Of a stretch of 64,000 nt of DNA, positions 9,274-60,957 are shown in pieces; the stretch's first letter is position 1; every line of letters starts with the position of its first letter. The translations under genes were made by a program, and so were the position numbers. The DNA comes from Octopus vulgaris (lineage: Eukaryota). The notes under the pieces are model-generated. The model saw nothing but the letters and a program-made list of their open reading frames with translations, was not told the DNA's origin and did no database searches. Where the stretch lies: positions 58,466,001 to 58,530,000 of the forward strand of contig OX597821.1 in assembly GCA_951406725.2 (NCBI GenBank). The letters run 5' to 3'.

Positions 9274-9341
9274 ATTTCGTGGACAGGAACTGAAACAAAT
9301 CAATCGTATATATATGTATGTATATATGTAAGTGTATGTGT

Positions 9342-30569: not shown

Positions 30570-30793
30570 ATGACTTCTGTTCAGCTCAGTCTTCGACAGC
30601 TGAGACGATCGTTGTTAAATATATCACAATGCCAACGACGATCAATTCCTTCAACTTTTCTCGCTTCCAAAAGGCATCTTCCAGTAACAGCTTATAAGCA
30701 AAAAAGTTCGCTAGTTAAAGAAGCAGAGGAAACAAACGGAAACAATTTTCTTTTTAAAGGAATGGAGACAGAATTTCCCTGCGTTTCTCGAAC
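30570..30793 (+). CDS. cys2: cys2-like exon 1 (start codon, mitochondrial-type presequence)
   Basis: [36 protein letters not shown]...FPCVSR. Arg/Ser/Leu-rich with no acidic residue in the first ~50 aa. Donor AC|GTAAG is phase 2 and matches exon 2. Confidence 0.8.
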
Positions 30794-31345
30794 GTAAGAC
30801 AACTTTGGAATTCGATCTGTATCTGTTTTTGTTATTTTTTTTCTGTATTATATGTGCCAAAAAGCAAACAAACTAATAATGCAAACGTGGACATATGCTT
30901 GTATAAACTTTTTTTTAGTGTCAGTGGTATTTTCAGTTGCAAATATTCTGCTAATTCTGCCCCACTATTTTGATTTTCCACACACACACATACACACATG
31001 GTTTACTCGAAGTTTTACTGCTATGCGTGTGTGTAAATATGTGTGGGTGGCCGATGGATGTAAGACTAGCAGAAACACAACTCGCCCAGGCAGAGATAGA
31101 CCCTACGTAGTGGGAGGGAGGCCCAAGACAGAGAGATGTGTGGCAAGTTTGCATCTAGACCACTGCAAGCAATTTTGAGAAGACCAGACCAACTGCAACG
31201 GATGAGAAACACCAAGCAAGAAATTAACCATTGCCACGACCAAAGCCTATACATTTGCCTCAAATGCACTATATCCTGTTGTTCAATGCTCTGTTTACAT
31301 TACCACTTAAAAGCTTGTCGCTCCTCCTTATCTTTGGACGCGAAG

Positions 31346-31385
<40 letters not shown>

Positions 31386-31572
31386 CTACAAAATTAGAAA
31401 ATGGAGAAACATACTTAAATCAATCAAATATCAACCATCAGATGATACCCAATCAATACTTTATTACACCATTACATAACAGTAAAGGCATTATACAAAA
31501 TATATAGTAAATATAATTAGACAAGGAAATAGAAATATAAAATATAATATATAATTATATCATATCTGACAG

Positions 31573-31650
<78 letters not shown>

Positions 31651-31916
31651 TGCAGCGTGGAAGGTGTTTATAAGCCATTTAAGAAACACACAAAAGCCGT
31701 TCGATTCACTTCAACATTTAAGTTTAATTTGTCAAAATATTTTCGTCGCTAAAATCCGCGACCTGTTCACTGACAAAAATCCGTGCTGCATCTGTTGAAG
31801 TGAATCGAACGGCTTTTGTGTGTTTCTTAAATGGCTTATAAACACCTTCCACGCTGCAATTGTTTTTGTTTCAGCACACGATCTCAGATCAAATTACTTG
31901 CTATGCGAGTACATCT

Positions 31917-31972
<56 letters not shown>

Positions 31973-32177
31973 GTTCGATTTGTTTTTGCTCCGCCTCTGT
32001 TCTGTTTTTGTTTTTCCAACGGATTTCCTATTTTCTTCCTGAAGAGAAAGACACAATATGGTCCCATCATTCCATCGGATTTTGGTAATTTGTGCCTTTC
32101 GAAACACGTGTAGAATGAAATAAAACGATTTCTGTTCAATCTGCGTTCAGCTCCATTTCTTCAATTCACCAATAATG

Positions 32178-32227
<50 letters not shown>

Positions 32228-34803: not shown

Positions 34804-34842
<39 letters not shown>

Positions 34843-37800
34843 TGTAGGGTAGGTATGATATACCAGATCTGGCTGGTTTATGTATAAAACAAGTAGGATA
34901 TTTTGGCTGGATGTGGTCAGTTTAAATGCTAGTGTTAAGGTGGTGCTCCAACATGGCTGCAGGCCAATGACTGAAATAAGTAAAAAATACAAGATGTCAT
35001 ATACATTACTTGTTTGTTGTTTTGCAGTGGTATTCACAAATCTCTCATCAAACTTGTGTATTGATTATTTTTATTTTTTATTGTTGCAGAAATATATCGG
35101 GCCCAGAACCTCAATATGACTTGGTTCAGTCTGGCTATGAAGTATTCACATATGACCAACCTTTCTATATGAAATATGGTGGTCGAATATTGCCTCAGTT
35201 AGACATTGCTTATGAAACCTGGGGAGAACTGAACGAAGACCGAGACAACACTGTAATGATATTCACTGGCCTGTCTGCCAGCTCACATGCAAAAAGTCAC
35301 AAGGTAATGTATTCATTGTATGGGTGCAAGAAAAACTGAAACAGGTGTAAATTTCTAAAGAAGCGTTCCACAACAATTTGACCTTCTAAGGCACCACTGA
35401 ACTAAATGGTACTAAGTAGTGTCTTATTTAGTTATACTCCTTTACATTCTGAGTTCAAATCCTGCCAGGATCTACATTATCCTTCATGATTTCTGAGTTA
35501 ATTAAAATAAGTACCTGTCAAATATTCTTTGATTTCTTTTACCAAAGCTTTGTGAGTGGATTTGGTACATGGTAACTGAAAGAAACCTGTCATATGTTTC
35601 TTTGTGTGTGCACATGTGTATGTATATGTGTGCATGTGTACAGATGTGTGTGCATGTATGCGTGTGTGTTACTGTTCTTGCCTTGACATCATGTGATAGT
35701 TGCAAATAAGTGCCCCTGTCGTGTGAGTAATTTCCTTTGTCACCAATCTCCTGTAAAATCCTATCTAATCATGGGATATTGCCTTACTTGGGAACCAGTA
35801 AAGGTTGGTGACTGGAAAAGCGTCTGGCCATAGAGAATCCACCTCAACAAACTCTGTCAATGCGAGCAGAGAAAACTGGACATTAAAACAATAATGATGA
35901 TTACTATTATGTTTGACATTTGCCAGTGCCGCTGGACTGACTCCTGTGCAGGTGGCATGTAAAAACCACCATTTGAGCATGGCCATTGCCAATACCACCT
36001 CACTGGTCCTCATGCCAGTGGCACGTGAAAGCAACCACTACACTCGGAGTCATTGGCATTAGGAAGGGCATCCAGCTGTAGAAACTTTGCCAGATCAGAT
36101 TGGAGACTGGTGCAGCCTTCTGGCTCACCAGTCCTCAGTCAAATTGTCCAACTCATGCTAGCATGGAAAGCAGACGTTAAACGATGATGATGATGAGTCC
36201 TACTATGAGACACTGTTTCCTATGGTTGTTTGCTTTGAATGTATGCAGAAATTTGCTTGTGTGCAAATTTTATCTTCCTTTGCTAAGTACGTGTGCATCC
36301 ATGCAAGTAATCATTGCTTAGATTAATTCAGCTAAAAATGTTTGACGTCTTCTTGAAAACCTTGTGTGCATATTTTTATTTGTATGCAAGTTATAAAATG
36401 TGTGTGCACTCAAGTGCACAGCTTAAAAAGAATATCGTACATTATAAAAATTTTATACATTGTGTATACTTTCACTTTCATCTTGTTCATTCAATTTCAA
36501 TATAAACCCCCATATTTTGTAGCCTGTCCATGTAATGTCACCTTGTGTTATTTAAACTGCATTTAATAGAAGGGCCCTGATTTGAGAGTTACAGGCTTTT
36601 GAGGAGTGTGGGTCCAACACTTGACCATTCTTGCTCCCAATTTGGAGTAGACCTGGGAACAATACTGCTCAAGAGCACTTGTTAGGGTCCCAGTTGTGGA
36701 TTAATTAGCATACCATAGAATTGCTTTGGAAGTAGGTCACTTGCAGATAGAACATTGGATCCAGGACAGATGATGCCCTTCAGCTCTTTAGCTATCCCTC
36801 TAAGAGAAGGTAACTCTATACAAATCTTGACTCCTGATAACTACTGGGCTTGTGGTACTTGTTGTGCTAGACCAATGCATGTTTGAAGAACGAGAGAGTA
36901 AGTCTGTAATATTCGTTGCACAAGTTGTTGAAGAAAACCAAGACATCCGCACCATCACACTTTTATCAGTTCTATGGAGATACAGAAAGGGGCAACGGGG
37001 ACAGGTGGAAGATGCTTCTGGAAGTCTTCAGCTTTAACCTTGCACCCAGGCAGCCATTGGGTGATGACTGGTTTTTGTGGTTTTGTTTTTAGTTGTGCCT
37101 TGCTGAACCTTAATTCATCGAAGCAATGAGAGATCCTACCATTATTTAAATGATTAATGTGGCGAGTTGGCAGAATCGTTAGCACGCTGGGTGAAATGCT
37201 TAGTGGTATTTCATCTGCCACTACGTTCTGAGTTCAAATTCTGCCAAGGTTGACTTTGCTTTTCATCCTTTCAGGGTCATTAAATTACGTCCCAGTTGAC
37301 TAAAATTTCTCAAGGCAGTGCCCCAGCATGGCCACAGTCTAATGAATGAAGCAAGGAAGAGATAAAAGATATCAAAGACAAACTAGATCTTAATCATAAT
37401 GGCTAGATTAATTTGCATGTCAAACTGTCCAACCTATGCCAACATGGAAAGCAGACATTAAACAATGATGATGACAAATTAATATTCAAATCAGTTATCA
37501 TCATCATCATCACCATCAACCTTACCACTCTTATCATTGTCATTGTTGTCATCATCATTGTCACCACCATCATCATTATCACTAAAGCACCATCCGATCG
37601 TGGCCGTTACCAGCCTTGCCTGGCCCCTGTGCCGGTGGCACGTAAAAAGCACCATCCGACCATGGTCGTTTGCCAGCCCCGTCTGGCACCTGTGTCAGTG
37701 GCACGTAAAAAGCACCACTACACTCACGGAGTGGTTGGCGTTAGGAAGGGCATCCAGCCGTAGAAACATTGCCAGATCAGACTGGGCCTGGTGCAGCCTT

Positions 37801-40800
37801 CTGGCTTCCCAGACACCAGTTGAACCGTCCAACCCATGCTAGCATGGAAAGCAGATGATAAATGATGATGATGATATTTACATGCTGTTATTTATAGATT
37901 TATCTACTTTGAGTTTTGCCATTAAAAATGAATTATTTTACGTTCTCTCAAAGTTTCTAAATTCTTACAACATAAACAAAAATACAATTATCTTTAAAAA
38001 CAAAGCTTCTAAAATAGGTGGAGAAGTTCATAGGATTACTATGGTTCAATGGTTGAACTGTCATGTTTACAGAAATTGTAGGTTCAATTCCCACAAGCAG
38101 CCTTTGTCTTCTTCTATGTAAAGGGTCTTTTAACCCAGTGTTTTACATGCTATTATTTCTACCATACTTAAGGCAGTGAGCTGGCAGAATTGTTAACACA
38201 AAGGGCAAAATGCTTAGAAGCATTTCCCCTAGCTTTGTTCTGAGTTCAAATGCCACTGGGGTTGATAAAATACATGGTCTGATCAATGAGTAATTGGACT
38301 GTTGCTATAGTAACGAAGCTAAAGCATGCAGAGTGAAGCTGCTTGGCACAGATTGACCTTGAACTCTGTTGTGCATGCACACTAAGTTTTAACGTTCTAG
38401 CTTGCTTCTGTTGTTTACAGCAGTGCTTGGAAGGAAGGTGTGTAGCTTGTGATCGTTACATTGACTACATCAAAGAAAGTTGAGCAGAGAATCTGCATCA
38501 AATTTTACTGAAAGCTTAGCGATACCTGCTCACAAGACTCTACTCTTTACTTGTTTCAGTCATTTGACTGCAGCCATGTTGGAGCACCACCTTTAGTCGA
38601 GTAAATTGACCCCAGGACTTATTCTTTGTAAGCTTAGTAGTTCTTCTATCAGTCTCTTTTGCCGAACCACTAAGTTATGGGGACGTAAACACACCAGCAT
38701 CGGTTTTCAAGTGATGTTGTGGGGACAAACACAGACATACAAACATGTGTGTGCATGCACACGTGTATACGACAGGCTTCTTTTCAGTTTCCGTCTACCA
38801 AATCCAATCACAAGGCTTTGGTCGGCCTGAGGCTATAGTAGAAGACACTTGCTCAAGGTGCCATGCAGTGGGGCTGAACCCGGAACCATGTGGTTGGTAA
38901 GCAAGCTACTTACCACACAGCCACTCCTGCGCAAAGTTTTCATCGTTCTTGACACAATCTAAGAGATCTTGTGCAACTGAAACCCGAGTGTCTTTTTGGT
39001 CAGCTGAAAGCAGTTTTGACACAAACTTGGCAGATATGCATCTCATACCCAAATCTTCAGTGATAATGGACTGAACTAAACCATAACTAATTTGCATATC
39101 CTTTGATAACTCACGGATAGTAATTCAACGATTTCCCCTCACAGCTGCATGCACATCTGCAATGTTTTTCTCATTCCTGCTAGTTGCAGGTCTCCCAGAA
39201 CATTCATCAATGTCAACATGTTTTCGGCCATCTTGGAAACGTCTGAGCCACTTGTACACTTGTGTGCAGCTCATACACTTCTCTCCATACACTTTCTGCA
39301 ACTTTGTGCAGGTCTCTGAGCAGGTATCACCATGACAACTTTCTCTGTCATGGTCAATGTGATGATCACACGCTACACACCTTCCTTCCGAGCACTGTTG
39401 TAAACAGCAGAGGTGAGGTAGAACGTTAAAACTTAGTGTGCATGCACAGCAGAGTTCAGGATCAATCTGTGACATGCAGCTTCACTCTGTATGCTTTAGC
39501 TTTGTTACTATGGCAACAGTCCGGATACTTATTGATCAGACCTTGTAAATATCAGTTAAGTACTGGGGTCAATGTAATTAGCTATCCCCCTCCCGAAAAA
39601 ATTCTGGCCTTGGGCCAATTTGAAATTATTATTTATAGGCGTAGGAGTGGCTGTGTGGAAAGTAGCTTGCTTACCAACCACATGGTTCCGGGTTCAGTCC
39701 CACTGCTTGGCACCTTGGGCAAGTGTCTTTTACTATAGCCTTGGGCCAACCAAAGCCTTGTGAGTGGATTTGGTAGACAGAAACTGAAAGAAGCCTGTTA
39801 TATATATGTATATGTATATATGTGTGTGTTTGTATACCTGTTTTTGTCCCCGTAACATCACTTGACAACTGATACTGGTGTGTTTACGCCCCTGTAACTT
39901 AACGGTTTGGCAAAAGAGACCAATAGAATAAGTACTAGGCTTACAAAGAATAAGTCCTGGGGTCGATTTGCTCGACTAAAGGCGGTGCTCCAGCATGGCC
40001 GCAGTCAAATGACTGAAACAAGTAAAAGAGCTTTATACATTTAAAGTTCTACTGTTAAAAGCCAACTAATCTTTGTTTTTCTCTTTCTTTATAGAAAAAT
40101 CCAGAGCCTGGTTGGTGGGAAAAATTCATTGGGCCAGGCCACCCTATTGACACAGACAAATATTTTGTCATCTGTACAAACAATATCGGTGGTTGCTATG
40201 GATCAAGGTAATTATATCAACAACAACACTTTTAACTCTTTCTAGTTCTATATTTTGAATTTGTTGCTTATTTGTTTTTAGTGAAACAAAGGAAGAGGAG
40301 GCAGTGTTGAGGGTAATGAATGTAACTGTAGCACTTTTTAAGTATTCTTGTGATATTTATAGTTATATGAGTGTGGGATTGTGGTTGTTTGACTCTGCAA
40401 CATTCTGATTACACTGTCAAATGTGTAGCGGCACAAGCAGTCAGTGCCATATCGGATGAGATCTCGCGGCAGCCATTGCCATCTCCGAGACTGAAGCGAG
40501 ACCTCACCCGCATCCATTTGCCATGCGCGAGATCACAACGAGGCTCGCAATGGCAAACTGTATATAAGGGCAAAGCAGAAGCTAATTCATTTTCTCTCTC
40601 CGCTTCTTCGCAGCAGCGCTTGCTGAGCACACTTCACTGGCTAGGCTTGTCTGCATGTTGCACCTCCAGAGGCAATGTGCCCGTGCTAATGGAGATACAA
40701 CATCCCGCACACAGCTCGAGATGGTTGCTGAGAGCAACGCACTTCACCTGTTCTGTGAAATTTGTAAATAAGCATTTGTACTTAAAGACTTCTTTCTTCG

Positions 40801-46800: not shown

Positions 46801-47080
46801 GGTTTCTTCAGCAGGATGCCCTTCTTAACGCTAACCACTTCATTGCATAATACAGTTCTATATTTAAGAGATGAGAAATTATGTACATTATTTGCATTAT
46901 TTACATTTGACGGATATTTGTCCACATCTTGTCTGTTGTTAACACAATGTTTTGGCTGATATACCCTCCGGCTTTCATCAGGTGTCTTGGGGGGAATTTC
47001 AAACCTGGATTCTCATTCCTAAGGTATTTTTTGATATTATTATTCGGGTCACTGCCTGGAAATTCGATTCCAGTCAGTGA

Positions 47081-47111
<31 letters not shown>

Positions 47112-48423
47112 GATATTGAAAAATACTTTAGGAATGAGAATCCAGGTTTGAAATTTCCCCAAGACACCTGATGAAAGCTGGAGGGTATATCAGGCAAAAC
47201 GTTGTGTTAACAACAAACAAGATGTGGACAAATATCCGTCAAATGTAAATAATGCACTTCATTGCATGTACTCGGTATCTTATTTCTTTATCTTATCACG
47301 TGATCACATGATTGATCAGACTATCAAATGTTGTTATACATCACTGGTCACAATGCTTTTTGCGTCATTTTAGCTTTTGAATGATGCCACTCTGTTGGCT
47401 AGGCTAGCAGGCCTACATTGCTCCTGGTCAAAAGGCTAGTCCATCACAGGGCTACCCATTTACAGTTGAGTAAGAAGAAAGAATGAGTGTTTTAATTGAT
47501 AGTTTATTGGTTTGGGGTTTTGTATTAACTTAAAAGGAAGTTATTACAGAAGATTAGGATTTTCTCAAGCAAGATTATATTTGTAATGCTTTCAACTATA
47601 AACTTTTTCATGAAATATTCTTTCATTTTGTTCATCTCGTTGCTGTCCAATAGGTACATGGATGTCTTGGTTCCTCATTGGGTGGAATGATTTCATTAAT
47701 GTCAGCAGCACTTTATCCTGACAGAGTTGGAAGGTAAGCTGATTAGCGTTCTTCATATAATTATCTCTAATCTTCAGGGTGACATTCTAGAGCAGGGATT
47801 CTCAACCATTTTTTTATCTATGGACCCCTTTGATTACTATTTTATTCTGGTGGACCCCCATAATCTTTTGATGTTTAAAAACTAGTTTTATAGAAACTTC
47901 ATTCAAAATTCCTATTTTGTTTCTCACATGTTAACTTTTGTAGGTTGAACTGTGTAAAATGCTAGAGAAAAAAACCTGTCTGTTTCTTGCAATACATACC
48001 AATACATACATCAAAAGCAAAATTTTTTAGGGGACACATAAAATACTATTGTGGATCCTCGATTTTCTATTTTGTTGCATAGAACCCCAAAAATCTTATA
48101 TGGACGCTCAGGTATCATATGGACCCCAGGTTGAGAATCACTGTTCTAGAGTGTTAAACTTAAGTTTTTATTTGGTAACTTAAATTTGTAATGATTACAC
48201 TGCAATCACCTTTACTGTTTATTTCTTTGGAATTGATGAGGTAAATAGCTGTAATATATTAAGACACAGGTGTGGCTGTGTTGTTAAGAAGTTTGATTTC
48301 CAATCACATAGTCTTAGGTTCAGTCCCACTCTGTGGAACTTTGGGCAAGTGTCTTTTAAAGCCCTAGTCCAATTAAAGCCTCAAGTTGATTTGCTAGATG
48401 GAAACTGAAAGAAGCCCCCCCTC

Positions 48424-48473
<50 letters not shown>

Positions 48474-51400
48474 GTTGCCTGACTGGCCCTTGTGCCAGTG
48501 GAATGTAAAAGCACCCACTACACTCTCGGAGTGGTTGGCGTTAGGAAGGGCATCCAGCTGTAGAAACTCTGCCAGATCAGATTGGAGCCTGGTGCAGCCA
48601 TCTGGCTTGCCAGTCCTTAGTCAAACCGTCCAACCCATACCAGCATGGAAAGTGGACGTTAAACGATGATGATGATGATGATATATAGATATATGTGAGT
48701 GTGTTTGTGTTTGTATCTCCTTATTTTGACATTGCATGATTGTTGTAAAGAAATGTTATTTATTTCCAATATTCTATGGAAAACATCTGTCCATGGTGAA
48801 ATATTACCTTGCTTGGAAACCAGTTAGATTTGGCAACATGAAGGGCATTTGGCTATAGAAAATCTGCCTCAATAACCTCCCTCAGACCCATGCAAGCATG
48901 GTAAAGTGGATGTTGAAATGATGATGATAATGTGCTAAAAAGTTGGTTGATTCACTTATCATCATCATCATTTAATGTCTATTTTCCATGGTGGCATGAG
49001 TTGGACAGTTCAACAAGGATCCAATAAGTCAAGGACTGCATCATACTCAATTGTCTGTTTTGGCAAGGTTTCTGTGGCTGGATGCCCTTCCTAATGCCAA
49101 CCCCTTTGCAGAATGTACTGGGTGCTTTTTTCCATGCCACCAGCAGTACTGGGATCACCATGTAGCTCATAAATCAACAAACCCAGGAGGGGGAGAGTGT
49201 TGCCTCTGTATAGTTAGATGGGGGTTAAGGTATGAGAGAAGAGGTTGGGGTTATGTAGGATCTTGTTATAGAGGAGCTACATGGCTATTCACATTTAGGA
49301 GAGTAAGTGAGAAATGATTAGAGGTATATGTGGCCATGCTGGAGTACAGGCTTGAAGGATTTAGTAAATCAAATCCAACCCCAGTACTTATTTTTTAAGT
49401 CTGGTACTTATTCTATTGGTCTCTTTTACTGAACTGCTAAGTTTTGGGGGGATGTAAAAAAAAAACCCAACACAAGTTGTCAAGCAGTTGAGCATCCCCA
49501 GCTCACATGCACACATACATATATATCGATGGGCTTCCATACAGTTTCTGCCTATCAAATTCAATCACAAGGCATTGGATAAGGCTATAGTAGGAGACAT
49601 TTGCCCAAGGTACCACACAGTGGAACTGAACCTGAAACCACATGATTCAAAGTGAGCTTCTTAAGCTCACAGCCATACCTATACCTATAGTTATTTTAAT
49701 TTTAAATTCTTACATCAATAAAGTTTTATGAACTTGGAAATTTGATACAGACTTGATCTTGTTGCTTTTCCCATTCTTTCAGAATGATCTCAATATCCAG
49801 CTGCAGCCAATCACACCCTTCATCCATTGCCATGAGATACATTCAGCGAAAAATCATCATGATGGACCCTAATTGGAATAATGGTCATTATTATGACCAT
49901 CAGTATCCAGCAGTTGGAATGAAACTTGCTCGGTAAAAACACTGGTTTTTGTAATACAGGAGTTATTTTATGAGACGTATAAATATTAGTTTCTGTAAGA
50001 ATTGTTTTCGTTCCAGCACATGATCTCATATCAAGTCACTTGCTATGCAAGTACATCTCTGTAATGTTTAAAACTAATATAGTTTCATTTTAGTTGTAAA
50101 GTTTTTTTTTGTAACATTTTGGCCTTTTATCCTCTCAATTAATTGATTGTGAGTTCAGTTCTACTGCCTGGCACCTTGGGCAAATGTCTTCTACTTTGGT
50201 CTTGTGATTGGATTTGGTAGATGGAAACTGTAAGAAGACCATTGTATGTGTGTGTATGTATGTATGTATGTGTTTTGTATATTTATTTGTCTGTCCTTGT
50301 CTTGACGTCATATATGGTTGTAAATGGATGTCATTCATTTGCAATATTCTGTGAAAATGTCGAGCCATTGGGAAATAGGTAAAGAAAGAATCCAGCTGTA
50401 GAAAAATCTGCCTTAGTAAACTCTATCTGATCCATGCAAGCATGGAAAAGTGGACATGAAGGAGGAGAAGATGAAGGAAAACAAGAAGAAGAAGAACAAC
50501 AACAACATCATCATCTGTGGTGCAGTTATGACATCTGAAGGAAGGAAGGTCCTGTGAACTACAAAATACTTTAGTCCCCTCCATTAGAGTCCATGGAAAT
50601 TTATTTTCACACTTTTGCCTTTCTGATTATATTTTTTCTAATCAAATATTTGAACGAATTCTTGGATAAGATAAATTTATGACTAGAAATATTTTTTTAT
50701 ACCAGCCATTGTGGATGATTTTAGGTGATGTAATTCTGGTGTTTTACTAATACATTTAGTGTAATTCCTGTACTAGGGTTAGAAATTATAATAAAATGTG
50801 GCACAGACAGACAACAGAGAGATATATGAAAAAGCAAGAAAACACATACAATGGATGTGAACATGCTAAACTTCAATTATTGACCAAATATCTAAATTTT
50901 GACACTTTCTGATAATATTGTTCAGTTTAGCAGTGTCAGCTGCTGGGGTGTGAGTGGATGATGTATGAACATGAACAGAAAAAATGTCATATGATTACAA
51001 GGAAAGATAAGTTTTTTAAACAAAATGTTAAAAATGAAAGGTTACGAGAACAGTAGACTATGAAGCCCATCAAGTTTCCTGGATTAGTTTTGGAAATCTA
51101 TTCCTGTATGCATGTTACCTTAAAACTATTAACCAAAATAATTCCATGTTGCATCAACTCAGCCATTTACTTCTTCATATTAATTAAATCCTAACAGCTA
51201 TTCAGTTATTATGTTAACAGTATCCATGTGCTACTCCAACCTACACCTCATCCCATTACAGTGTGGGGTGTGTGTCAACAAACTCTTTACAATTCCCACC
51301 CTTATCAAATTGAGAATAACTCCCCCTCACTACGTATTTATCTCTTACACTTCTCACTATTTATCACTTTATCATTCATGAATCCTGTGATAAACGCTCA

Positions 51401-54400
51401 CTGATTCAACAACTTCAAAACATGTGTCATATATCTCAAGCAAACAAATCTACTGTCATGTGCTGCTTCCTCTGCAATCAAAATACATAGCTAAGATAAT
51501 AATAATACTACAGCACCAACGTGTCCCAACAATTTTTAAAAAGCTCATTTGTATGAATGTTCACAAAAGACACTTGATAATACAGCTATTCTGTAATCCA
51601 CATAGCTACATTATATTACAGCTTCTAATTTATATTATGGCCGTCTAATGAACAGTCTAGATATTCTCACTATTAGAGTTCAGAGCAAATTACAAAGGCC
51701 ACCCACTTAGAAATGGAGGTATCTTTACTGAACAAAATATTGAATCTATATTTACAAAAATTATTTATAACTTATATTGAATTACTAGTTTCTTCTTTAG
51801 ACTTAAACAGTTAGCCAAACGGTCACTGCTTTTCGTAGTCTGTAAGTATGTCTGGAAGTTAAGCATGCAACACTTGGCTAAATTAAATCTTCTTCCAGTA
51901 TGGATGTGTGGTTGATCCAAAACGAAACAACATGGAGGTGATGGTGGTGCTAGTAGTGTGCGTGAGAATGCCTCCAAGAAGGTGACATTGTTTGTTCAGT
52001 CCGCTGGCTCATCGAGAGAACTTGCTGAGCAGCCAACAGAACTATGTGCCAAGAGAGTTCTAAAACGAAGGAAGGAAAACTCTAGTGAGAAATGGTGACT
52101 GTCATGTTTTATACAAATGCCAAACTGGAAGCAGAAGGAAACATTCCATTCTAACCAATCACAGAGAACGATACAAAAAGTGCAACCACACAAAATCGAC
52201 TGAGCCAACTTTGAAATGGAGAAATTTATATTTGCATGTAAGCCAATATCAAACACAGTGCTGCTACAAACACTTGTTTTCATATGTTTTGCAGACATCA
52301 TTGGGCAGTTTCAAATTTGAATGCAGGTAAAATTTCACCTACAGGCATAGGCTTCCCTACTTCTGGCCTATCTAGATATTCCTACTTGAGTCTAGATAGC
52401 CACACTACAGTCTGATAGTACAATCTAGAAACCTGTACAGCAGTCTAGGTACCCACACAACAGTCTAGAAACCCAAATAATATTACAGGTACCTGTAAAT
52501 ATCCACACTGTATTACAGATATCCATCTGGTATTACAGATGTCCACATGGTAGTATATATAGATTTGCCTATATTGTAATGTAGGAATGTAGCCTGCACT
52601 ACTATGTAGATAAGCTAGTGATAACATATTTACTGTAGTGAGCATTAAATACCTATTTAAAAATATTTGTGTTGACAAACAGATAACATTAGTTAAATGA
52701 CTAATAATAATAATAATCATCATTATTATCATCATTGTTTGACGTCTGTCTTCCATGCATGGTTGACAGGAGCCAGCCAGGTTGAAGACTACCCCAGGCT
52801 ACTGAGTCTGTTTTGGCAGGGTTTTTGCAACTGGCTGGCCTTCCTAACAGCAAACACTCCACAGAGTGGACTTAGTGCTTTTCACGTGGCACAATCACAG
52901 ACGAGGTCAGTTTTGGCATAATTTTTACAGCTGGATGCCCTCCCAAATGCCAACCACTTTATAGTGTGGACTGGATGCTTTTTAAGGGTCACCAAGTAAC
53001 TTTGCAAGACAAGGAATTTTGAGAAAGGAGGAAGCATTGGTGGAAGGGATCTTGTGTCATGATAAAAGGTTAGTGTGACAGAGAGGCAGAAACACGTGTC
53101 TTGCTATAGAGGAGGGGGCATTGGGGGAGGTGATCTTGTGTCAGATATTGATAAGAAAGAGGACAGAAATAGGTGTGCTGACGTAAAGGAGATACTTGGT
53201 TGCTTAGCAAGAGGGGAAAGCAATATTTATGCAAATATAGTGACATCTTAACTTCAAATATGTAATGTTCTTTTCTACTCTAGGCACAAAGCCTGAAATT
53301 TTGGGGGAGGGGGCCAGTCGATTAGTTTGATCCCAGTATGCAACTGGTACTTAATTTATTGACCCCGAAAGGATGAAAGGCAAAGTTGACCTCTGTGGAA
53401 TTTGAACTCAGAACGTAAAGACAGACGAAATACCACTAAGCATTTCGCCCGGCATGCTAATGTTTCTGTCAGCTTGCTGCCTTTCAAACATGTAATATTA
53501 CAATTGCTTCTAACAGATCATAGTTGCACTGCTGGTTTTACTAGAGGAAAGATGTCTGTATTTGTAGTTTGTACAAGTTTAATATTATATGAGATTTTGA
53601 AATGCTGTATTATTGTTTCTTAGAGAGATAGCTACCATGACATACCGCAGTGGACCTGAATGGAACAAGAGATTTGGCCGACAAAAGATAGACCCAACTG
53701 AAGAGCCTACTTTGTGTCCAACTTTCAATATAGAAAGTTATCTTGAATATCAAGGAGAGAGTTTTAGTAGGAAATATGATCCAAATTCCTTACTTTACAT
53801 ATCTAAGGTAAAATACTTGAATTCTCCATTTTACATGTTTTTTAAAATTAGTTGATATATTCGTGTTTGTATATATGTATATATGTTTGTGTCTTCATGA
53901 TCATCATTTAACATCTGTTTTCCATGCTGGTATAGGTTGGAGAGTTTGACAGGAGCTAGCCAGCCAAAGAACTGTTTTGGCATGGTTTCTACAGCTGGAT
54001 ACCCTTCTTAATGCCAACCACTTTACTGAGTGTATTGGGTGTTTTTTTTTTTTTTTATATGGAACTGACATATACATGTTTTATACATAGCAAAGACATG
54101 GGTGCTTTATATGTGACACTGGCACAGGTGCTTCTTACATGGCAGCTTTTTATGTGGTCCCAGACAGGTGCTTTTCTATATGGCAGTCACACAGGTGCAT
54201 CTTACATGGAACTATCATGGGTGTTTCTCACGTGGCACTAGCACAGGTGCTTTTTACATGGCACCAGGAAGGGTGCTTTTTACCTGGCACCAACATGTGT
54301 GCTTTTTATGTGGTACCATGGCACCAATTCCTGCAAGCCTGTATGTATAGATGGCCACTATTTTACTTAGCTTGACGTGTCTTCTCTAGCACAGCAAATT

Positions 54401-57400
54401 GTCAGAAGTCTTAGTCCCTTGTCATCTCCACAGTGAGGTCTAGTGCCATCCCCTATTCTATTTAACCTTTCATTCTGTTGCTTATTCAAATTTTCTTTCC
54501 AGTTTTTTGTCTTATGAACATCCAGCTGTCTTCATTACTTTCTCCCCTATCACCTTCACACATATATCATTCTATTGGACTGTCCAGAAAGTTCATGCCA
54601 ATTTTTAAAGGAAAGAAAAAGGTCAATAAATACTTGCCATTACATTTTTAATCAACCAAATATGAACCATTTTGTTGTATAATGCATCTCCATCTTTCCT
54701 TTAACTTGAAAATACCCTCTTCCCAGAATTGAGGTGGTTTCATGGCAAAATATTCATCAAGGTATCTTTTTACGTCATCGAAGGAATTGAAATTTTTACC
54801 ATTGAGACTATTCTGCAGAGACCTGAATAAGTGGAAATCGAAGGCCCAATATCTGCAGCAATTTTTGTCTGGTTCCCAAAGCATCAAGTGCCGAAAATGA
54901 ACTTTATCTTCCATTTTAAAGGGTTACAGAATTAACACAGGTTATAGGAACATAAACCTTCTTCCACAAAAAGATAGCTTAAACTGTGCTCTAAATGGCA
55001 GTGTAGTCAAATCCTATTTTATGGACTCGACCATGTTCTAAAATAAGTTGAAAGGTAAGCTACTATAAGTCGGCACAAACTTTCAGGACAACCCAATATT
55101 TCTCTGATCACACTCATACTATCTCTCTTCTACCACCCTCTTGGTCAACATTCCCTCCTCTATTTACACTCACAGTTGCATTTGTCCTAAACAAATGGAG
55201 ATAACAAAGAGTAGAGTAGACTGTTTAGCCTTGCAAGAGACAAAGCAACCTCTCTTATGTTGATGCCATGATAAAATGCACCCACCATAAAATATGAGTT
55301 GATAAAACAATGAAGACAAGGTAGTGAGGAGGAGGAAGGAGAGCTCTTTAGTTTTTGTAGAGGTAGCCTCTTTCGTGCTGTTGTCAAAATAAAATGCACC
55401 CAGTACACTCTGTAAAGTGGTTGATGGTAGGAAGGGCATCTAATTGTAGAATGCATTCATAAAAGGGATCGATAAAAAGTGATGGGTAAAATAAGACTAC
55501 ACTGAAGTACTGGGATTCATAAGATCTGCTAAAACTCCTTGAAGTCTGTGACACAGTGTGGCTCCCAGACTTCACACCCTTTACTATAGAGTGTATTGAG
55601 CTGTTTAACGTTTAAACAAACTACAATATGTGCATATGTTAGCTAAAATGAAATAATAATAATAATAATGATTTATATTTTTTCAAGGCAATGGATTTAT
55701 TTGATATCCAAGATGGTTTTGACACCTTAACTGAAGGTCTTGCCCGAGTTGCTTGTCCATGCATGGTTATTGGAGTAAAGACTGATATTTTGTTCCCTGT
55801 TTGGCAGCAGAGAAATCTGGCTGAAAGTTTACAAGAAGCTGGTGAGTTTATATGTCTTGAGTTTTAAACATGGGTGTGTAAATGATAAATTTTTTATATG
55901 TTTAAACAGATTCCAAAGAGACAGGTGTTGATCTGTCTCAGTAAGATTTGTATTATCTAGTAAAATTAATAAAAAAGTACAATGAACTTGGCATGGGGGC
56001 TGGGTGGAAAAATTTGTCTGAAACATTGGATTTCTCTTTCCCTGTGGTAAATTCACTGTATTTTTTTTTTAGCAATTTTACTAAATAATATATTTTTTAG
56101 TCTGTGAAATTAGCTATTCTACCATTTCCAACTTTCTTCTATTTTTTTACTTGTCTCAGTCATTAGACTGTGGCCATGCTGGGGAATCCCTTTGATGAAT
56201 TTTAGTTGAATGAATCAACCTCAGTACTTAGTTATTATTATTTTAAAGCCTGGTACTTATTCTATAGATCTTTTTTGCTAAACCACTAAGTTACAGGGAC
56301 ATCAGTACACCAACTTTAGTTGTCAAGTGATGGTTGAGGACAAAGACACACACACACACACACATATATATGACAAGCTTCTTTCAGTTTCCGTTTACCA
56401 AATCCACTCACAAGGCCTTGGTCAGCTCAAGGCTATAGTAGAATACACTTGGCCAAGGTACTACACTGTAGGACAGAACCCAGAACCATGTGGTTGGGAA
56501 ACAAGCTTTTTACCACACAGCCATACTTGTCTATACATTTAACATCTTTACAAATGTGTTACCTTCTAACATATTTTCTATATGAAAGTCTTCCTATGAT
56601 GAGGGCTTCATTAGAAATGCTCTATCATGGCTACTGCTCTGTGTAATATAATTATCTATGGCATGCTAAAACGATTTTATGGCAGCTCTTAATTTTGAAG
56701 GAACAATATAAGACTGCTTCCAAATGCTTAGATACTTCTACAACACCCCAGATCACTACTACAAACCTTCTACATAGACACTATTATAAGACCTAGTAAA
56801 ACACTATTTCTCCCACTCAGACCAAACACAAAAATAGCTGCAGTATCAATAGACTCTTTAAAACTGGTGCTCTGTCAGTTATGATGAGTGTTCCAGTTGA
56901 TCCGATTAATGGAACAGCCTGCTCATGAAATTAACAGATAAGTGGTTGAACACTCCACAAACATGTGTACCCTTAACGTAGTTCTGAGGGAGATTCAGCA
57001 TGACTGGAGCAACATGAAATGAAATGGCTTGCTTAAGAACACAATGCACAGTGTTGGTTTGCTTATGTGCCCTTAACTTAGCAGTTTGGCAAAAGAGACT
57101 GATAGAAAAAATAACAGATTTATAAAAAAATGAATATGTAATTGCTAGGCTCAATTTGTTCCACTAAAACCCTTTGAGGCAGTGCCTAAGCATGGCCACA
57201 GTCCAATGACTGACCCAGGTAAAACAAAAAATTTATTCACAAATATTATTATGTATTAGTATACAAAGACTGGTGAAGGTAAAGAATATACACACCTGGT
57301 GTTTAGGGTTATGCCAAAAACGGGTGGTGTGCATATTCTTTACCTCTGCCCCAAAATTATCTTTTACCCCTTCCTTTCTTTCCAGGAAATGAAGCTGTGA

Positions 57401-59219
57401 CTTACTATGAACTGAGCTCTATATTTGGACATGACACTTTCTTGCTTGATTTAAATGGTGTTGGTAGTGCCATGAAGGTAAGCTAAGGTCAACCTGGATC
57501 TTTTGACCGTTTTATTATTTGTTTTCTGAGGACAGCTGTGTAAAGAAGTGCCAATCTCTAATTGTGGAGAGAACCTGTAGTAGATATGGAATGAGGTGGT
57601 GAAGCATGCTCTTCAAACTTTGAGCCTCGCAGAGGCAATGACTAGTGACCAAGGCCTTTGGCGATGTGCTCTGCTTGAGAGGACCCATCAATGAAAGTGA
57701 AATCATAGTCGTGGTTGATAATGGTGTCACATAAATGGCAAGTAAAGAACATCTTTCAAGCATTGAGCTTCACTGAAGTAAAGTGGCCCAGTTCCTTTTG
57801 AGTGTTGGGCCTCATGATGGCAATGAGCAAGACCTTTGGCAATATATTGTACTTGAGAAGACCCAACAAGCCGGGCAAAACTTCCATGCTTCCTGTGATT
57901 CGCCAACACTACATTTGATTTTCTGCCCTCCATACACACGCTAACATGTATCTGACTCATACACTGTTCACTTTTCAGTCATTTGTACATTACTGCATAT
58001 GCTACGCACTTTTGACAAGTTGTAGTGCACCTGAGCACTGTATACAATAATTTCATTATTATTTTATTATAAAATCGCAGTTGTGGCAAAAACGCAAATG
58101 ACACCTGTGTCAGTGGTATGTAAAAGCACCCATTACACTCTAGGAGTGATTGGCGTTAGGAAGGACATCCAGCTGTAGAAAACCATGCCAAATCAGACTG
58201 GAGTTTGGTGTAGTCTTCCAGATTGCCAGCCCCCAGTCAAACCATCCAACCTATGCCAACATGGACAATGGACGTTAAATGATAAACTTTTACTTGAAGT
58301 GAAATCTTTGAACTTTTTTTTAAAGAACTCTGCTTTCTTACACCAACAAGTGTACAATGATCTTTTAGTAATTGGTTATTTCATCAGTACTTCAGTAAGT
58401 AATAATGAAGATGCACGACTTAGTGGTTAGGGTGTTGCATTTACAATTGCAGGAATGGTGTTTTCTTTCCTGGATCAGGCAGTGCTTTGTGTTCTTGAGC
58501 AAAACACTTCATCTCATGTTGCTCTGCAATCAGGTTGACATCTGATGTATGGTACACTGTACACTTGTACAGGCAATCTTGATTTGATGCAGGGAGTGAG
58601 TTGATGTACAGTACAAACATTTGATCATTATAAACAAATCATCTGTGTGGTTTTTCAGCAAGAAATTGCAGAACCCTCATCTGTCCTCTACAAGAGGAGA
58701 GTCCATCACACTCCTCTTATATCTGGTTAGAGTGCTCTACTTTTAAACTAAACTGCTGACCGACAAATTCTTCTGCAAGAAGTTATAAAGTCATCCAGAA
58801 ACACTAGATGTCATATAGATTACGTCATGTGTAAACAAACATAGGTTTATTTTTGGAGCGTTGAAATGAATTGTAGAACAAATAGAAAGATATATTTTTC
58901 AATTTGAAAAACATATCTTTCTACTTGTTCTACAATACATTTCAACACTTCAAAAATAAACCCATGTTTGTTTGCATATGATGTTAACATTTTCATGTTC
59001 CATGCATTAGATATATGTTAAACACAAACTAAGATTTTAAAATTCACTTGTTTTGATGTAAGAAATCCTGTCATTTTCCCTCTTCTTAACCAAAAGTAGG
59101 AGTGACCTTACTTAATGTTTATCTGAAGGTTATTTTGTTTGAAAACTAAAGTTGACAAGAGTATGCGGTTAGAAACTACATACTGCCATCTATTCACAGA
59201 TAACTTGGAATCATTTAAT

Positions 59220-59250
<31 letters not shown>

Positions 59251-60957
59251 ACATTGTGTACAGTGCTCAGGTGCACTACAACTCATCGAAAGTGTATATA
59301 TAATCAGGTGTAGTTTCGACGGATTTCGGAAAGCATGAGGGCCTTAAAGGATGCAGTGTCATGGCAGTCAACAACTGACGCAGGCAGTTTATTCCATGCT
59401 TCAGCAACTCTGAGTGTGAAGAAATGTTTCCAAAAGTCATGGGAGCTGTGTTGTTTTCTGACTTTGTGGGCATGTCCACGTGTGTTAGACACATGGAGAT
59501 CAAAAAGGTGTTCAGTGTTGTTATTGGTGAGGTGGTTGACAACTTTGTGGGTGTTTACCAAGTCCGTCGCCAGATGCCGGAGCTTCAGTGAATCCATGCC
59601 CAGGGAAACAAGGCGCTCAGAATGTGGTGCTTTGCTTTGCCAAACACTTCAATATACGAACTAGCAAACTCACTTACTACGCTGTACTGGGAAAACATAG
59701 AACTGATTTGCTTCAGGTAAATGAAGAGATACCTGGTGGAAAAATTTGCAATGCATAGATCTATGTATATATCTTTAAATGTGACTCCTGGAGTATCAAC
59801 AGATTGAAATGTCTTTCAGTAAGTAAATTAACATCCCAGTGCTGCAGCATGTTTTGTGTAGTTTGTACAATTGGAAAAATCCAATGCATAAAAATAAATG
59901 TATAATATTAATAAGCTTTGCCAGATTGGATTGGAGCCTGGTGCAGCCTTCTGGCTTGCCAGCCCTCAATCAAACCGTCCAATCCATGCCAGCATGGAAA
60001 GCGGACATTAACGATGATGATGATGATATAGGTGCAGGAGTGACTATGTGGTAAGCTTGCTTCCCAACTGCATGGGTCTGGTTTCAATCCCACTGCATGG
60101 TACCTTGGGCAAGTGTCTTCTGCTATAGCCTCAGGCCAACCAAAGCCTTGTGAGTGGACTTCATCATCATCCAGTGTTTTAAATCCAGGTTTTGTCCCCA
60201 TTAACAGGGGTGGCCGGATCTACCTCAATGCCATAGCAACTTGCCCTCACACCATCTCACTCGGTTTTGGGCATCCTCCTTTGGTAGACAGAAACTGAGA
60301 AAAGCCCATCTTATATATATATATATATATTTATGTGTCTGTGTTTGTCCCCCCACCACCACTTGACCAATGTTGGTGTGTTTACATCCCCATAACTTAA
60401 TGGTTCGGCAAAAAGAGACCAATAGAACAAGTACTAGGCTTACAAATAATAAGTCCTGGGATCGATTTATTCAATTAAAGGCAGTGCTCTAGCGTGGCCA
60501 CAGTCAAATGACTGAAACAAGTAAAAGAGTACATATGGATGATGGTAATGTAAACCAGAAGTGACAATATAAGAAATAACACATATATTTGCTTAATCAC
60601 TCCTTGAACCGAGTCCCAGGACTCCTAAGAGCAGTTGCCCAGTTTCTATGGGAAAGGGACTGAGATCACAATATTCCCCTCGACCAGGATGCCGGGCTGT
60701 TGCACTCATATACAACCAAGGGGATTGGAGCAATGTGAAATGAAGTGTTTTGCTCAAGAACTCAATGCGTTGCTTGGTCCAAGAATTGAGACCACAATCT
60801 TACGATCACAAGTGTAACACCATGTCTACTGGGCCACATGCTTTCATTCATTAAAGTTAATATTCGTTAATATTGTTAATTATTATGCTTTCAGGGTTTT
60901 CTTGAGACTAATATGAAAGAATATGGAAGAGCCATGAAAAGAAAGGGGAAAGCTTAA
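30570..60957 (+). CDS. cys2: Spliced 11-exon gene, 464 aa: MetX-family serine O-succinyltransferase/O-acetyltransferase (fungal Cys2-like), probably mitochondrial
   Basis: Exons 30570-30793, 35090-35303, 40095-40207, 43613-43646, 45599-45685, 47654-47733, 49783-49932, 53624-53807, 55688-55841, 57386-57477 and 60895-60957 join in phase into a stop-free 1395-nt ORF, all introns GT..AG. Motifs: [45 protein letters not shown] (Ser nucleophile), [14 protein letters not shown] (Asp), GHDTFLL (His). Confidence 0.92.
31646..31863. repeat. Inverted repeat with perfect 71-bp arms enclosing a hammerhead-like motif
   Basis: Arms 31646-31716 and 31793-31863. The loop on the minus strand reads TTTGTCA-GTGAACAG-GTCGC..GCGAC-GAAA-ATATTT-TGACAAA. 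Confidence 0.85.
32036..32115 (+). ncRNA. Type I hammerhead ribozyme in cys2 intron 1 (sense strand)
   Basis: Stem I TTC/GAA (extendable across a 1-nt bulge); CTGAAGA; stem II GAAAGACACAA/TTGTGCCTTTC; GAAA; palindromic ACACGTGT; GTA cleavage triplet. Confidence 0.75.
33820..34730. repeat. Degenerate foldback/MITE-like repeat with internal duplication
   Basis: Repeated modules (AAAATTGCCAAAAATC.GCATT.TGAAAT, TTTTTCCGCATATTT) occur in both orientations, with roughly inverted outer ends. Confidence 0.5.
35090..35303 (+). CDS. cys2: cys2-like exon 2
   Basis: Acceptor ttgcAG; encodes NISGPEPQY...[10 protein letters not shown]...[14 protein letters not shown]; donor AAG|GTAATG. Confidence 0.93.
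38271..39547 (-). mobile_element. Non-autonomous mariner derivative with long TIRs, interrupted by a SINE
   Basis: ~185-bp inverted termini (..GGTCTGATCAAT.. / ..ATTGATCAGACC..). ORF remnants [20 protein letters not shown] and ISAKFV.KLL. Confidence 0.75.
39638..40030 (+). mobile_element. Abundant tRNA-derived SINE (representative near-complete copy)
   Basis: GGCGTAGGAGTGGCTGTGTGG...GGTTCAGTCCC head to ...CAAATGACTGAAACAAGTAAAAGAG tail. Other copies at ~8810-9090, 13860-14030, 14210-14345, 18533-18760, 23900-24210, 24370-24500, 32780-33135, 38545-38930, 49330-49685, 56150-56530 and 60030-60530. Confidence 0.8.
40095..40207 (+). CDS. cys2: cys2-like exon 3
   Basis: Acceptor tttatAG; encodes [37 protein letters not shown]; donor AG|GTAATT. 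Confidence 0.93.
40349..40870 (+). mobile_element. Possible solo LTR
   Basis: GC-richer, CpG-retaining island with TATATAAG, an AATAA-like signal and weak inverted termini (TGTGATAT..ATATCGTA). No clear TSD. Confidence 0.3.
42240..43140 (-). mobile_element. 3' fragment of an RTE-clade LINE with (GAT)n tail
   Basis: [11 protein letters not shown]...[16 protein letters not shown] (RTE C-terminus) followed by the common 3' UTR. UTR-only copies at ~35920-36195, 37590-37875, 48475-48682, 57515-57880, 58100-58285 and 62820-62985. Confidence 0.75.
43613..43646 (+). CDS. cys2: cys2-like exon 4 (34-nt micro-exon)
   Basis: Acceptor tttcAG; encodes (S)[11 protein letters not shown]; donor AAG|GTGAGT. 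Completes the GSSGPSS motif and bridges phase 2 to phase 0. Confidence 0.88.
44977..45329 (+). mobile_element. tRNA-headed, hammerhead-containing short retroelement with inverted 3'-end copy
   Basis: 10-bp TSD CTCTATTGTT (44967-44976 / 45330-45339). A-box TGGCATAGTGG near 45096, B-box GAGTTCAATTCC at 45139-45150, (AAT)n linker, hammerhead at 45238-45279. Confidence 0.7.
45238..45279 (+). ncRNA. Minimal hammerhead ribozyme motif within a tRNA-headed element
   Basis: CAC-CTGATGA-(A)GGCT...AGTC-GAAA-CG-TT-GTG. Mutated sister copies at 47164-47207, ~46945-46987 (-) and ~19006-19031. Confidence 0.6.
45599..45685 (+). CDS. cys2: cys2-like exon 5
   Basis: Acceptor tttgcAG; encodes [29 protein letters not shown]; donor AAG|GTAAAT. 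Confidence 0.92.
46030..46410 (-). mobile_element. CR1/L2-like LINE 3' fragment
   Basis: [18 protein letters not shown]...[13 protein letters not shown] is typical of a CR1-group ORF2 C-terminus. Confidence 0.65.
46415..46797. repeat. ~385-bp interspersed repeat, near-identical copy at 51105-51491
   Basis: Both copies begin TGTATGCATGTTACCTTAAAAC and end CAAAATACATAGCT. Confidence 0.8.
46849..47254. mobile_element. Palindromic insertion of the same hammerhead-containing element
   Basis: 13-bp TSD CACTTCATTGCAT (46836-46848 / 47255-47267). Inverted arms span ~46893-47256, folded at the truncated B-box. Confidence 0.8.
47654..47733 (+). CDS. cys2: cys2-like exon 6 (nucleophile elbow)
   Basis: Acceptor caatAG; encodes [26 protein letters not shown]; donor AG|GTAAGC. 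Confidence 0.93.
47793..48143. mobile_element. hAT-type MITE (second, truncated copy at ~63617-63910)
   Basis: TIRs CAGGGATTCTCAACC / GGTTGAGAATCACTG; 8-bp TSD TTCTAGAG (47785-47792 / 48144-48151). Confidence 0.88.
49783..49932 (+). CDS. cys2: cys2-like exon 7
   Basis: Acceptor ctttcAG; encodes [37 protein letters not shown]...GMKLA; donor CG|GTAAAA. Confidence 0.92.
53624..53807 (+). CDS. cys2: cys2-like exon 8
   Basis: Acceptor ttcttAG; encodes [19 protein letters not shown]...[26 protein letters not shown]; donor AAG|GTAAAA. Confidence 0.93.
54090..54325. repeat. Degenerate ~26-30-bp minisatellite (GGCAC..GGTGCTTTTTACATGG)
   Basis: About 8 diverged tandem units inside an RTE-tail repeat. 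Confidence 0.6.
54575..55096 (-). mobile_element. Internally deleted mariner, same family as 2689-3171
   Basis: TA-flanked TIRs; remnant [31 protein letters not shown]. Confidence 0.85.
55688..55841 (+). CDS. cys2: cys2-like exon 9 (catalytic Asp)
   Basis: Acceptor tttcaAG; encodes [10 protein letters not shown]...[25 protein letters not shown]; donor G|GTGAGT. Confidence 0.92.
57386..57477 (+). CDS. cys2: cys2-like exon 10 (catalytic His)
   Basis: Acceptor ttccAG; encodes [31 protein letters not shown]; donor AAG|GTAAGC. Confidence 0.93.
59225..59630 (-). mobile_element. CR1/L2-like LINE 3' fragment with (ATT)n tail
   Basis: [10 protein letters not shown]...[14 protein letters not shown] motif. 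A related tail occurs at ~58000-58070. Confidence 0.75.
60895..60957 (+). CDS. cys2: cys2-like exon 11 (terminal coding exon)
   Basis: Acceptor ctttcAG; encodes [20 protein letters not shown]. The 'K|GFL' junction matches the usual C-terminal helix of the family. Candidate AATAAA signals follow at 61007, 61318 and 61561. Confidence 0.8.
   Translation, partial: GFLETNMKEYGRAMKRKGKA

Follow-up and report, generated by a model that had tools for sequence, protein, structure and literature searches.

The window analysed here, a 64-kb stretch of Octopus vulgaris genomic DNA, contains an intact, spliced gene for an orthologue of the serine O-acyltransferase Cys2. It is quite probable that the encoded enzyme, likely mitochondrial, succinylates serine for a putative Cys1a enzyme. 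In the proposed mechanism, Cys2 would move the succinyl group from succinyl-CoA onto L-serine and Cys1a would turn the resulting O-succinylserine into cysteine, a route that would operate beside transsulfuration and not replace it.

Structure and splicing of the Cys2 gene

The gene comprises 11 exons between positions 30570 and 60957 of the forward strand, and all ten introns begin with GT and end with AG. The spliced frame of 1395 nt encodes 464 aa without internal stops, in agreement with the earlier note, which had described an intact 11-exon gene with a product of this length. Its parts are the following:

30570..30793, + strand: exon 1 (aa 1-74), start codon ATG, FPC motif; N-terminus basic and free of acidic residues, a predicted mitochondrial presequence
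35090..35303, + strand: exon 2 (aa 75-146), SGPEP, oxyanion-hole turn G135-L-S-A138 at 35268-35279
40095..40207, + strand: exon 3, RefSeq match and contigs
43613..43646, + strand: exon 4, 34 nt long; contigs cross both of its junctions
45599..45685, + strand: exon 5, RefSeq match and contigs
47654..47733, + strand: exon 6, nucleophile Ser232 and Leu233 (47675-47680)
49783..49932, + strand: exon 7, Arg269 (49835-49837; putative succinyl-binding arginine) and Arg273
53624..53807, + strand: exon 8, lid domain; intron 7 splits the Arg301 codon
55688..55841, + strand: exon 9, catalytic Asp395 (55784-55786) and Leu397
57386..57477, + strand: exon 10, catalytic His429, then Asp430 (57430-57435)
60895..60957, + strand: exon 11, coding part, TAA stop
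60958..61805, + strand: probable 3′ UTR, AATAAA at 61800, weak hint from contigs

The RefSeq protein LOC106867363 of O. bimaculoides, a direct orthologue known from computational annotation only and titled 'uncharacterized', is colinear with the octopus protein, with 448 of 464 residues identical, 16 differences and no gap. As had been remarked earlier, most exons are hidden in the ORF track: only three of the 11 (exons 1, 2 and 8) lie, in the coding frame, inside a stop-to-stop ORF of at least 80 aa. None of four exons scanned singly gave a Pfam match.

The junctions, which the earlier note proposed to confirm with RNA-seq, were compared with contigs from sequencing runs. Introns 3-7 and 9 are removed at GT..AG joints with exactly the predicted length in contigs from the four runs examined, and in the same four runs intron 8 is skipped as contiguous record coordinates. 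These runs come from four studies, and their type ('RNA?') is a guess. Introns 1, 2 and 10 lie outside the stretch compared with the contigs and are placed by the RefSeq match and contig-span arithmetic. Exon 2 was found in 20 of 24 sequencing-run rows, none of which is labelled as RNA on record, and the evidence for expression comes from the spliced contigs. The gene is hence real, intact and spliced, with splicing observed for introns 3-9.

Four exon differences were seen in three of the runs, a single one being non-synonymous (P325L), and were read as alleles. RNA recoding was considered and set aside, no A>G difference being listed for exons 3-10 in the run contigs. Downstream of the stop codon, three contigs would stop at 61767-61803 if colinear, contig ends not being true transcript ends. 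Further AATAAA sites occur at 61007, 61275, 61318 and 61561.

Orthologues and origin of the locus

Orthologues that are 55-78% identical to the octopus protein were listed in molluscs, annelids, brachiopods, echinoderms, tunicates and amphioxus, and the same range covers those of cnidarians, sponges, Trichoplax, Capsaspora and fungi. The 'cys2' row of the coral Acropora digitifera shows 59% identity across 92%. Databases list dozens of orthologues from molluscs, with those of Argonauta and others already titled serine O-succinyltransferase-like; the RefSeq entry of Argonauta hians, a direct orthologue (355 of 455 residues identical), is a computational annotation only.

A quick tree of 52 rows recovered a cephalopod clade (99), a bilaterian clade (98) and a eukaryote clade (99), the latter including the Acropora, Capsaspora and fungal rows and separate from the GLSP-type proteobacterial rows. 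Cephalopods nest within other bilaterians, followed by cnidarians, with fungi outside the animals, and A. digitifera falls in the same animal clade as the octopus. The tree was built without a homoserine acetyltransferase, S. pombe Cys2, Acropora loripes Cys2 or a G1 outgroup, the validated enzymes being represented by proxies, and its L030 branch derives from the unpublished genome G010. Within that frame, the phylogeny proposed in the earlier note grouped the octopus protein with eukaryotic Cys2.

Dispersed repeats make up 17-66% of the individual introns and are absent (0%) from every exon, and 54 alignments of at least 80 nt tie the introns to the upstream flank. The introns are rich in host repeats, for which the earlier note had proposed SINEs; a mariner-type piece lies in intron 2. 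The bacterial relatives are fairly close (53-57% identity), which could suggest contamination, recent horizontal transfer or even a pseudogene. However, ten spliceosomal introns carry host repeats, splicing is seen in contigs from four studies, two other cephalopod genomes contain intact orthologues, and the tree nesting mirrors the species tree, which argues for an inherited gene. Contamination, recent transfer or a pseudogene is thus extremely improbable, and the exclusion of contamination in the earlier note is upheld.

Enzyme class and acyl donor

The octopus protein has the MetX fold, with an alpha/beta-hydrolase core, a lid and a Ser-Asp-His triad (Ser232, Asp395 and His429) that is invariant in 118 rows. 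The FPC, SGPEP, TGLSASSH and triad motifs reported earlier are all found in the 464-aa protein, starting at residues 69 (FPC), 78 (SGPEP), 134 (TGLSASSH), 230 (GSSLGG), 394 (TDILFP) and 428 (GHDTF). MetX-G3c enzymes are characterized by Gly-Leu-Ser-Ala/Pro at positions 52-55 and by Ser-Leu/Met, not Ser-Tyr, at 149-150. In the octopus these are GLSA at 135-138 and Ser232-Leu233, and the glycine lies 97 aa from the nucleophile, as in the 52/149 numbering (PMC9506716). Among the 120 homologues listed, GLSA occurs in 90, Ser-Leu in 109, Ser-Met in 8, arginine at position 269 in 107 and GHD in 118. Asp430, which follows the catalytic histidine, is invariant and is the likely counterpart of Asp360 (X. 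campestris numbering, by inferred mapping) and of Asp367 in CnMetXS (PMC13683966).

The MetX-G3c L-serine O-succinyltransferases are reported to include A. loripes Acys2 and S. pombe Cys2 (PMC9506716; Bastard 2017), which share family and signature residues with the octopus protein (464 vs 465 aa). Serine O-succinyltransferase activity and cys2-delta rescue are reported for the coral orthologue (PMC9506716). Streptomyces DcsE (PDB 3VVL and 3VVM) is the best solved relative: it leads the sequence comparison (E 2.7e-89) and takes ranks 1-4 in the fold comparison at 42% identity, with the GLS turn, the triad and the equivalent of Arg269 in common. It differs in having GLSP and not GLSA (octopus TGLSA aligns to DcsE TGLSP), in being a bacterial enzyme of D-cycloserine synthesis, and in an aligned part without the presequence-like extension. 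The structure model of an orthologue (pLDDT 86.8) gave TM scores of 0.73 to DcsE and 0.74 to 2B61, hence the fold hardly separates DcsE from the homoserine enzymes. The signature residues, the tree and the relationship to DcsE support the earlier assignment as a Cys2-type (MetX-G3c) serine O-acyltransferase.

A homoserine O-acyltransferase of methionine synthesis (Met2/MetX-G1 or G2) would be compatible with the score against the generic MetX model PRK00175 (420 bits, cut-off 331), with the title homoserine O-acetyltransferase of some homologue rows, and with Leu233, leucine after the nucleophile being typical of MetX-G2 and methionine of G3 (PMC13683966). One passage of a review also places Cys2 on homoserine (PMC13257386); because such a substrate would chemically yield homocysteine, this passage was taken for an error. 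However, the homoserine-specific models stayed below their cut-offs (TIGR01392, MetX-G1, 374 vs 500 bits; NF047916, MetX-G2, 319 vs 560 bits), and the protein groups with the coral Cys2 orthologue. The G1 and G2 enzymes (2PL5, 2B61, CnMetXS) share the fold and the triad at 32-37% identity by structure, but they carry an ALSG-type turn (Ala-Leu-Ser/Thr-Gly in G1), absent from the octopus protein, asparagine at the Arg269 position (2PL5) and, in G2, arginine at Asp+2, which is Leu397 in the octopus. Furthermore, homoserine synthesis is not known from animals. A homoserine enzyme is accordingly very unlikely.

The same class of serine enzyme could use acetyl-CoA and, as a serine O-acetyltransferase, still feed cysteine synthesis. 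DcsE is titled L-serine O-acetyltransferase in the PDB, several homologues bear 'acetyltransferase' in their database names, and S. pombe Cys1a reportedly also takes O-acetylserine, about 3-fold less well (bioRxiv 10.64898/2026.06.04.730285). Against this, Cys2 enzymes are reported to be mainly succinyltransferases (PMC9506716), and Arg269 is shared by all 52 of the 52 rows aligned, with asparagine as the aligned residue in the homoserine acetyltransferase 2PL5. This arginine would correspond to Arg183 (F. aurantia numbering), by a mapping inferred rather than aligned to the reference sequence, the G3 arginine being the reported succinyl determinant (PMC13683966). DcsE shares this arginine, so Arg269 by itself cannot decide the donor. 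An acetyl donor is considered unlikely and succinyl-CoA is preferred. Judging from family studies, transfer would follow a ping-pong scheme via Ser232, with Asp395 and His429, while the GLSA turn would select serine over homoserine and Arg269 would hold the succinyl carboxylate.

Predicted mitochondrial targeting, the putative Cys1a partner and significance

Residues 1-30 of octopus Cys2 contain five basic and no acidic residues, and residues 1-50 of the orthologue model have a pLDDT below 50. A basic, acid-poor N-terminus was found in 38 of 57 full-length orthologues vs 185 of 2850 core 30-mers, and the 19 Cys1a N-termini inspected are all likewise presequence-like. From this composition a cleavable presequence is predicted, and octopus Cys2 likely enters mitochondria. 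That both animal Cys2 and Cys1a look mitochondrial goes one step beyond the main text of the coral paper, which mentions neither Octopus, molluscs nor mitochondria (PMC9506716); the presequence-like N-terminus of octopus Cys2 is what is added here.

Sulfide fixation onto O-acylserine in the octopus would need a Cys1a partner. No Cys1a gene lies in the 64-kb window, the Atlas Cys1a clusters are fungal-dominated only, and the best 120 of 8000 Cys1a matches include 25 animal rows, all from outside the lophotrochozoans, while molluscs retain and express a conserved Cys2. The octopus, or molluscs, might thus have lost Cys1a, with another fate for O-succinylserine. However, these best 120 matches reach down to 318 bits and so end at the level of the animal rows (318-335 bits). 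Furthermore, Cys2 and Cys1a reportedly occur in every animal lineage, with vertebrates, arthropods and nematodes as the exceptions (Salazar 2022, PMC9506716), and 'serine acetyltransferase' and 'cysteine synthase' transcripts are reported for a snail (PMC5519703). Loss of the partner is therefore improbable, as is the wider scenario in which cephalopods, perhaps all lophotrochozoans, keep an expressed mitochondrial Cys2 after it; if true, O-succinylserine would go to another sulfhydrylase (promiscuous CBS) or to a non-cysteine succinyl/serine shunt. A putative Cys1a is the preferred partner.

In bacteria, a cysteine-synthase motif lies within 5 kb of 2 of 80 loci of Cys2 relatives, and the one scanned is CysK-type, so gene neighbourhood lends the pathway no support. 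A PRK10717 (Cys1a-like) synthase above cut-off was found in all seven close relatives tested (G004 and G005 being outside the scan) vs 3 of 14 control genomes, weak evidence since these genomes are related to each other; the more distant G010 gave none above cut-off.

The rarity implied by the earlier note finds no support, given the dozens of mollusc orthologues and the route being reported for most invertebrate groups (PMC9506716). Octopus Cys2 hence belongs to a known family without standing out in it, and its presence would not surprise a specialist. S. pombe mutants are reported to be rescued by coral Cys2 and Cys1a (PMC9506716). CBS is missing from Acropora, which depends on the Cys2 route; the octopus protein is known here from gene, spliced contigs and sequence comparison. 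Searches found no literature on cephalopod cysteine biosynthesis from serine, no assay of a mollusc Cys2 enzyme and, judged by titles for Octopus and cysteine synthase, nothing on this gene.

A known but little-taught point is thus extended to cephalopods: a second, fungal-type cysteine route is likely in most invertebrates. In fission yeast, sulfur comes from H2S or from persulfides made by sulfide:quinone oxidoreductase (PMC8577491), and by analogy the donor could be the same in the octopus. H2S detoxification by this route in the octopus would be an extrapolation from that yeast. With a fission-yeast-like source, invertebrate mitochondria could recycle sulfide to cysteine using succinyl-CoA; that such recycling is physiologically significant is a tentative idea, rather doubtful at present, which if true would bear on sulfide tolerance and on cysteine and taurine needs in culture.

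Gene structure and transcripts

The elements recognised in the window are as follows.

30570-60957, plus: 11-exon Cys2-like gene
3651-8531, minus: apparently intact LINE (ORF list and domains)
7386-8531, minus: LINE ORF1-like frame, 381 aa, CCHC motif
3651-7049, minus: LINE ORF2, 1132 aa, with endonuclease, reverse transcriptase and zf-RVT domains
9294-11976, plus: RTE-like LINE, decayed and broken across several frames, identified by eye in the ORF list
1538-3176, 26499-26925, 39060-39500, 54648-55103: mariner-type transposase remnants
27497-27954, opposite strands: two overlapping frames with a near-identical 137-aa translation

In a protein similarity search, the best match of exon 2 was the 464-aa Octopus bimaculoides protein LOC106867363 (P0001), which mapped onto the window in 11 blocks. 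At every exon boundary the donor is GT and the acceptor AG, and the chosen exon set (1395 nt) encodes 464 aa with no internal stops, identical to P0001 at 448 of 464 positions without gaps; 6 of the 16 differences fall within residues 1-60. The window thus belongs to an Octopus near that record yet distinct from it. The 11-exon, 464-aa model of the earlier note is thereby upheld, as are its quoted motifs, all found on the plus strand, and its remark that most exons are invisible as ORFs, since ORFs of at least 80 aa contain only exons 1, 2 and 8 in the coding frame. Its repeat-filled introns were likewise recovered: 17-66% of every intron consists of dispersed repeats, the exons are free of them, and the intron repeats match the upstream flank in 54 alignments.

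Splicing was examined on window 39900-58000, which leaves introns 1, 2 and 10 outside, with contigs of 4 runs from 4 studies, out of 20 runs containing exon 2, the run type being guessed as RNA. In all four, a single contig of 2.1-2.2 kb omits GT..AG-bounded stretches of 3405, 1952, 1968, 2049, 3691 and 1544 nt, which match predicted introns 3-7 and 9 in length, and intron 8 (1880 nt) is bridged through contiguous record coordinates. The junction check proposed earlier thus succeeded for introns 3-9. Upstream of exon 3, three of the spliced contigs carry another 438, 461 and 353 nt, the coding part of exons 1 and 2 being 438 nt. If colinear, their other ends would fall at 61767-61803, close to an AATAAA (61800), which is a weak hint of the transcript 3′ end. 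A C>T change at 53695 (P325L, lid region), present in 3 of the 4 runs, is probably an allele or species difference.

Among the other elements, the LINE at 3651-8531 is probably young because it is GC-rich relative to the background. Two pieces of the RTE-like LINE gave no Pfam match, and the paired frames at 27497-27954 point to a long inverted repeat or hairpin insertion. Related mariner-type copies are present upstream of the Cys2 gene and inside two of its introns (2 and 8).

Class assignment and descent

The O-succinylserine route in animals has been published since 2022 (PMC9506716). A literature search with poor coverage of subscription journals found no publication on a cephalopod Cys2 enzyme, in line with the earlier note; Octopus, molluscs and mitochondria are all absent from that paper's main text, and its data archive may list cephalopod rows.

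The published Cys2 signature comprises GLSA/P at 52-55, Ser-Leu/Met at 149-150, Arg183 and Asp360 (PMC9506716). The window protein has GLSA at 135-138 and Ser232-Leu233, with the same spacing of 97. Arg269, invariant in 52 of 52 aligned rows and replaced by Asn in the homoserine acetyltransferase 2PL5, and Asp430, directly after the catalytic His, would be the equivalents of Arg183 and Asp360. In the homoserine succinyltransferases of group G2, the succinyl arginine lies two residues after the catalytic Asp, whereas the window protein has Leu397 there; a Leu following the nucleophile is typical of G2 (PMC13683966), and Leu233 weighs slightly against assignment to MetX-G3c. The closest solved relative is the Streptomyces serine O-acyltransferase DcsE, by sequence and also by fold (AlphaFold model of P0001, pLDDT 86.8), the homoserine enzymes being nearly as good structurally. 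In NCBIfam, the protein scores under the homoserine-specific cut-offs and over the generic one, as does its Acropora digitifera orthologue.

Among the best 120 of 5167 matches, the relatives of P0001 (55-78% identity) include molluscs (cephalopods, gastropods, bivalves, a chiton), annelids, a brachiopod, a bryozoan, nemerteans, rotifers, a priapulid, a tardigrade, echinoderms, hemichordates, amphioxus, tunicates, cnidarians, Trichoplax and sponges and, outside animals, Capsaspora and fungi; many are already named serine O-succinyltransferase-like. That the tardigrade (P0011) and the priapulid (P0133) have retained Cys2 agrees with its having been lost independently in arthropods and in nematodes, as opposed to a single loss in Ecdysozoa.

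In a quick IQ-TREE phylogeny of 52 rows, without homoserine acetyltransferase and with proxies in place of S. pombe Cys2 and A. loripes Cys2, the window protein pairs with O. bimaculoides (98), and Argonauta joins the two (99). Cephalopods fall inside bilaterians (98), which join cnidarians (94) within animals (92) and a eukaryote clade including fungi (99). The Myxococcota-type proteins are the next to branch, and the GLSP-type ones of proteobacteria fall outside. This nesting by species among eukaryotic Cys2 rows reflects vertical descent of the octopus gene. By every testable sequence feature, the protein appears to belong to, and to work like, MetX-G3c/Cys2, as the earlier note had proposed.

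Nine Myxococcota/Deltaproteobacteria-type genomes (L001-L008, L038) carry a GLSA-type MetX nearer to eukaryotic Cys2 than to the GLSP-type proteobacterial proteins, and all 7 tested encode a Cys1a-like synthase elsewhere. In two Steroidobacteraceae genomes, a GLSP-type metX has a cysteine synthase gene, CysK-type in L068, as its immediate upstream neighbour (L068 3949-4896, L073 4018-4965).

The Cys1a partner and a putative mitochondrial route

The 64-kb window contains no Cys1a, the O-succinylserine sulfhydrylase. Animal Cys1a sequences were reached by way of bacterial relatives; the best 120 of 8000 matches hold 25 animal rows (19 named and 6 unnamed nested with them), which are cnidarian, echinoderm, tunicate or sponge, with no lophotrochozoan. 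The corresponding tree has 73 rows, namely P0160 and 72 of the 120, including all 19 named animal rows and omitting other named fungi, oomycetes and the unnamed rows closest to the query. Octopus could accordingly have kept Cys2 without its partner. This is very improbable: the best 120 go down to 318 bits and the animal rows score 318-335, which easily explains the missing lophotrochozoans; Cys2 and Cys1a are described in all animal lineages but three (PMC9506716), and a cysteine synthase was reported in a snail transcriptome (PMC5519703).

Residues 1-30 of the window protein contain 5 basic and no acidic residues, the first acidic one being at 51. Among 62 orthologues, 57 (56 animals and Capsaspora) have a Met start and a core that could be located; the N-termini of 38 of the 57 are basic and acid-poor, compared with 185 of 2850 core 30-mers. 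Per 25 residues, the 19 Cys1a N-termini inspected (17 animals, Capsaspora and a choanoflagellate) contain 2-6 basic and 0-2 acidic ones. A mitochondrial location was predicted for a fungal Cys1a (bioRxiv 10.64898/2026.06.04.730285), and S. pombe cys11 is counted among mitochondrial genes (PMC10582590). S. pombe Cys11 takes its sulfur either from H2S or from glutathione persulfide, and more H2S is released when Cys11 is lost (PMC8577491); coral genes rescue both yeast mutants (PMC9506716). Most likely, octopus Cys2 would be imported into mitochondria, succinyl-CoA would succinylate Ser232, the succinyl group would pass to L-serine, and Cys1a would swap succinate for sulfur, yielding cysteine.
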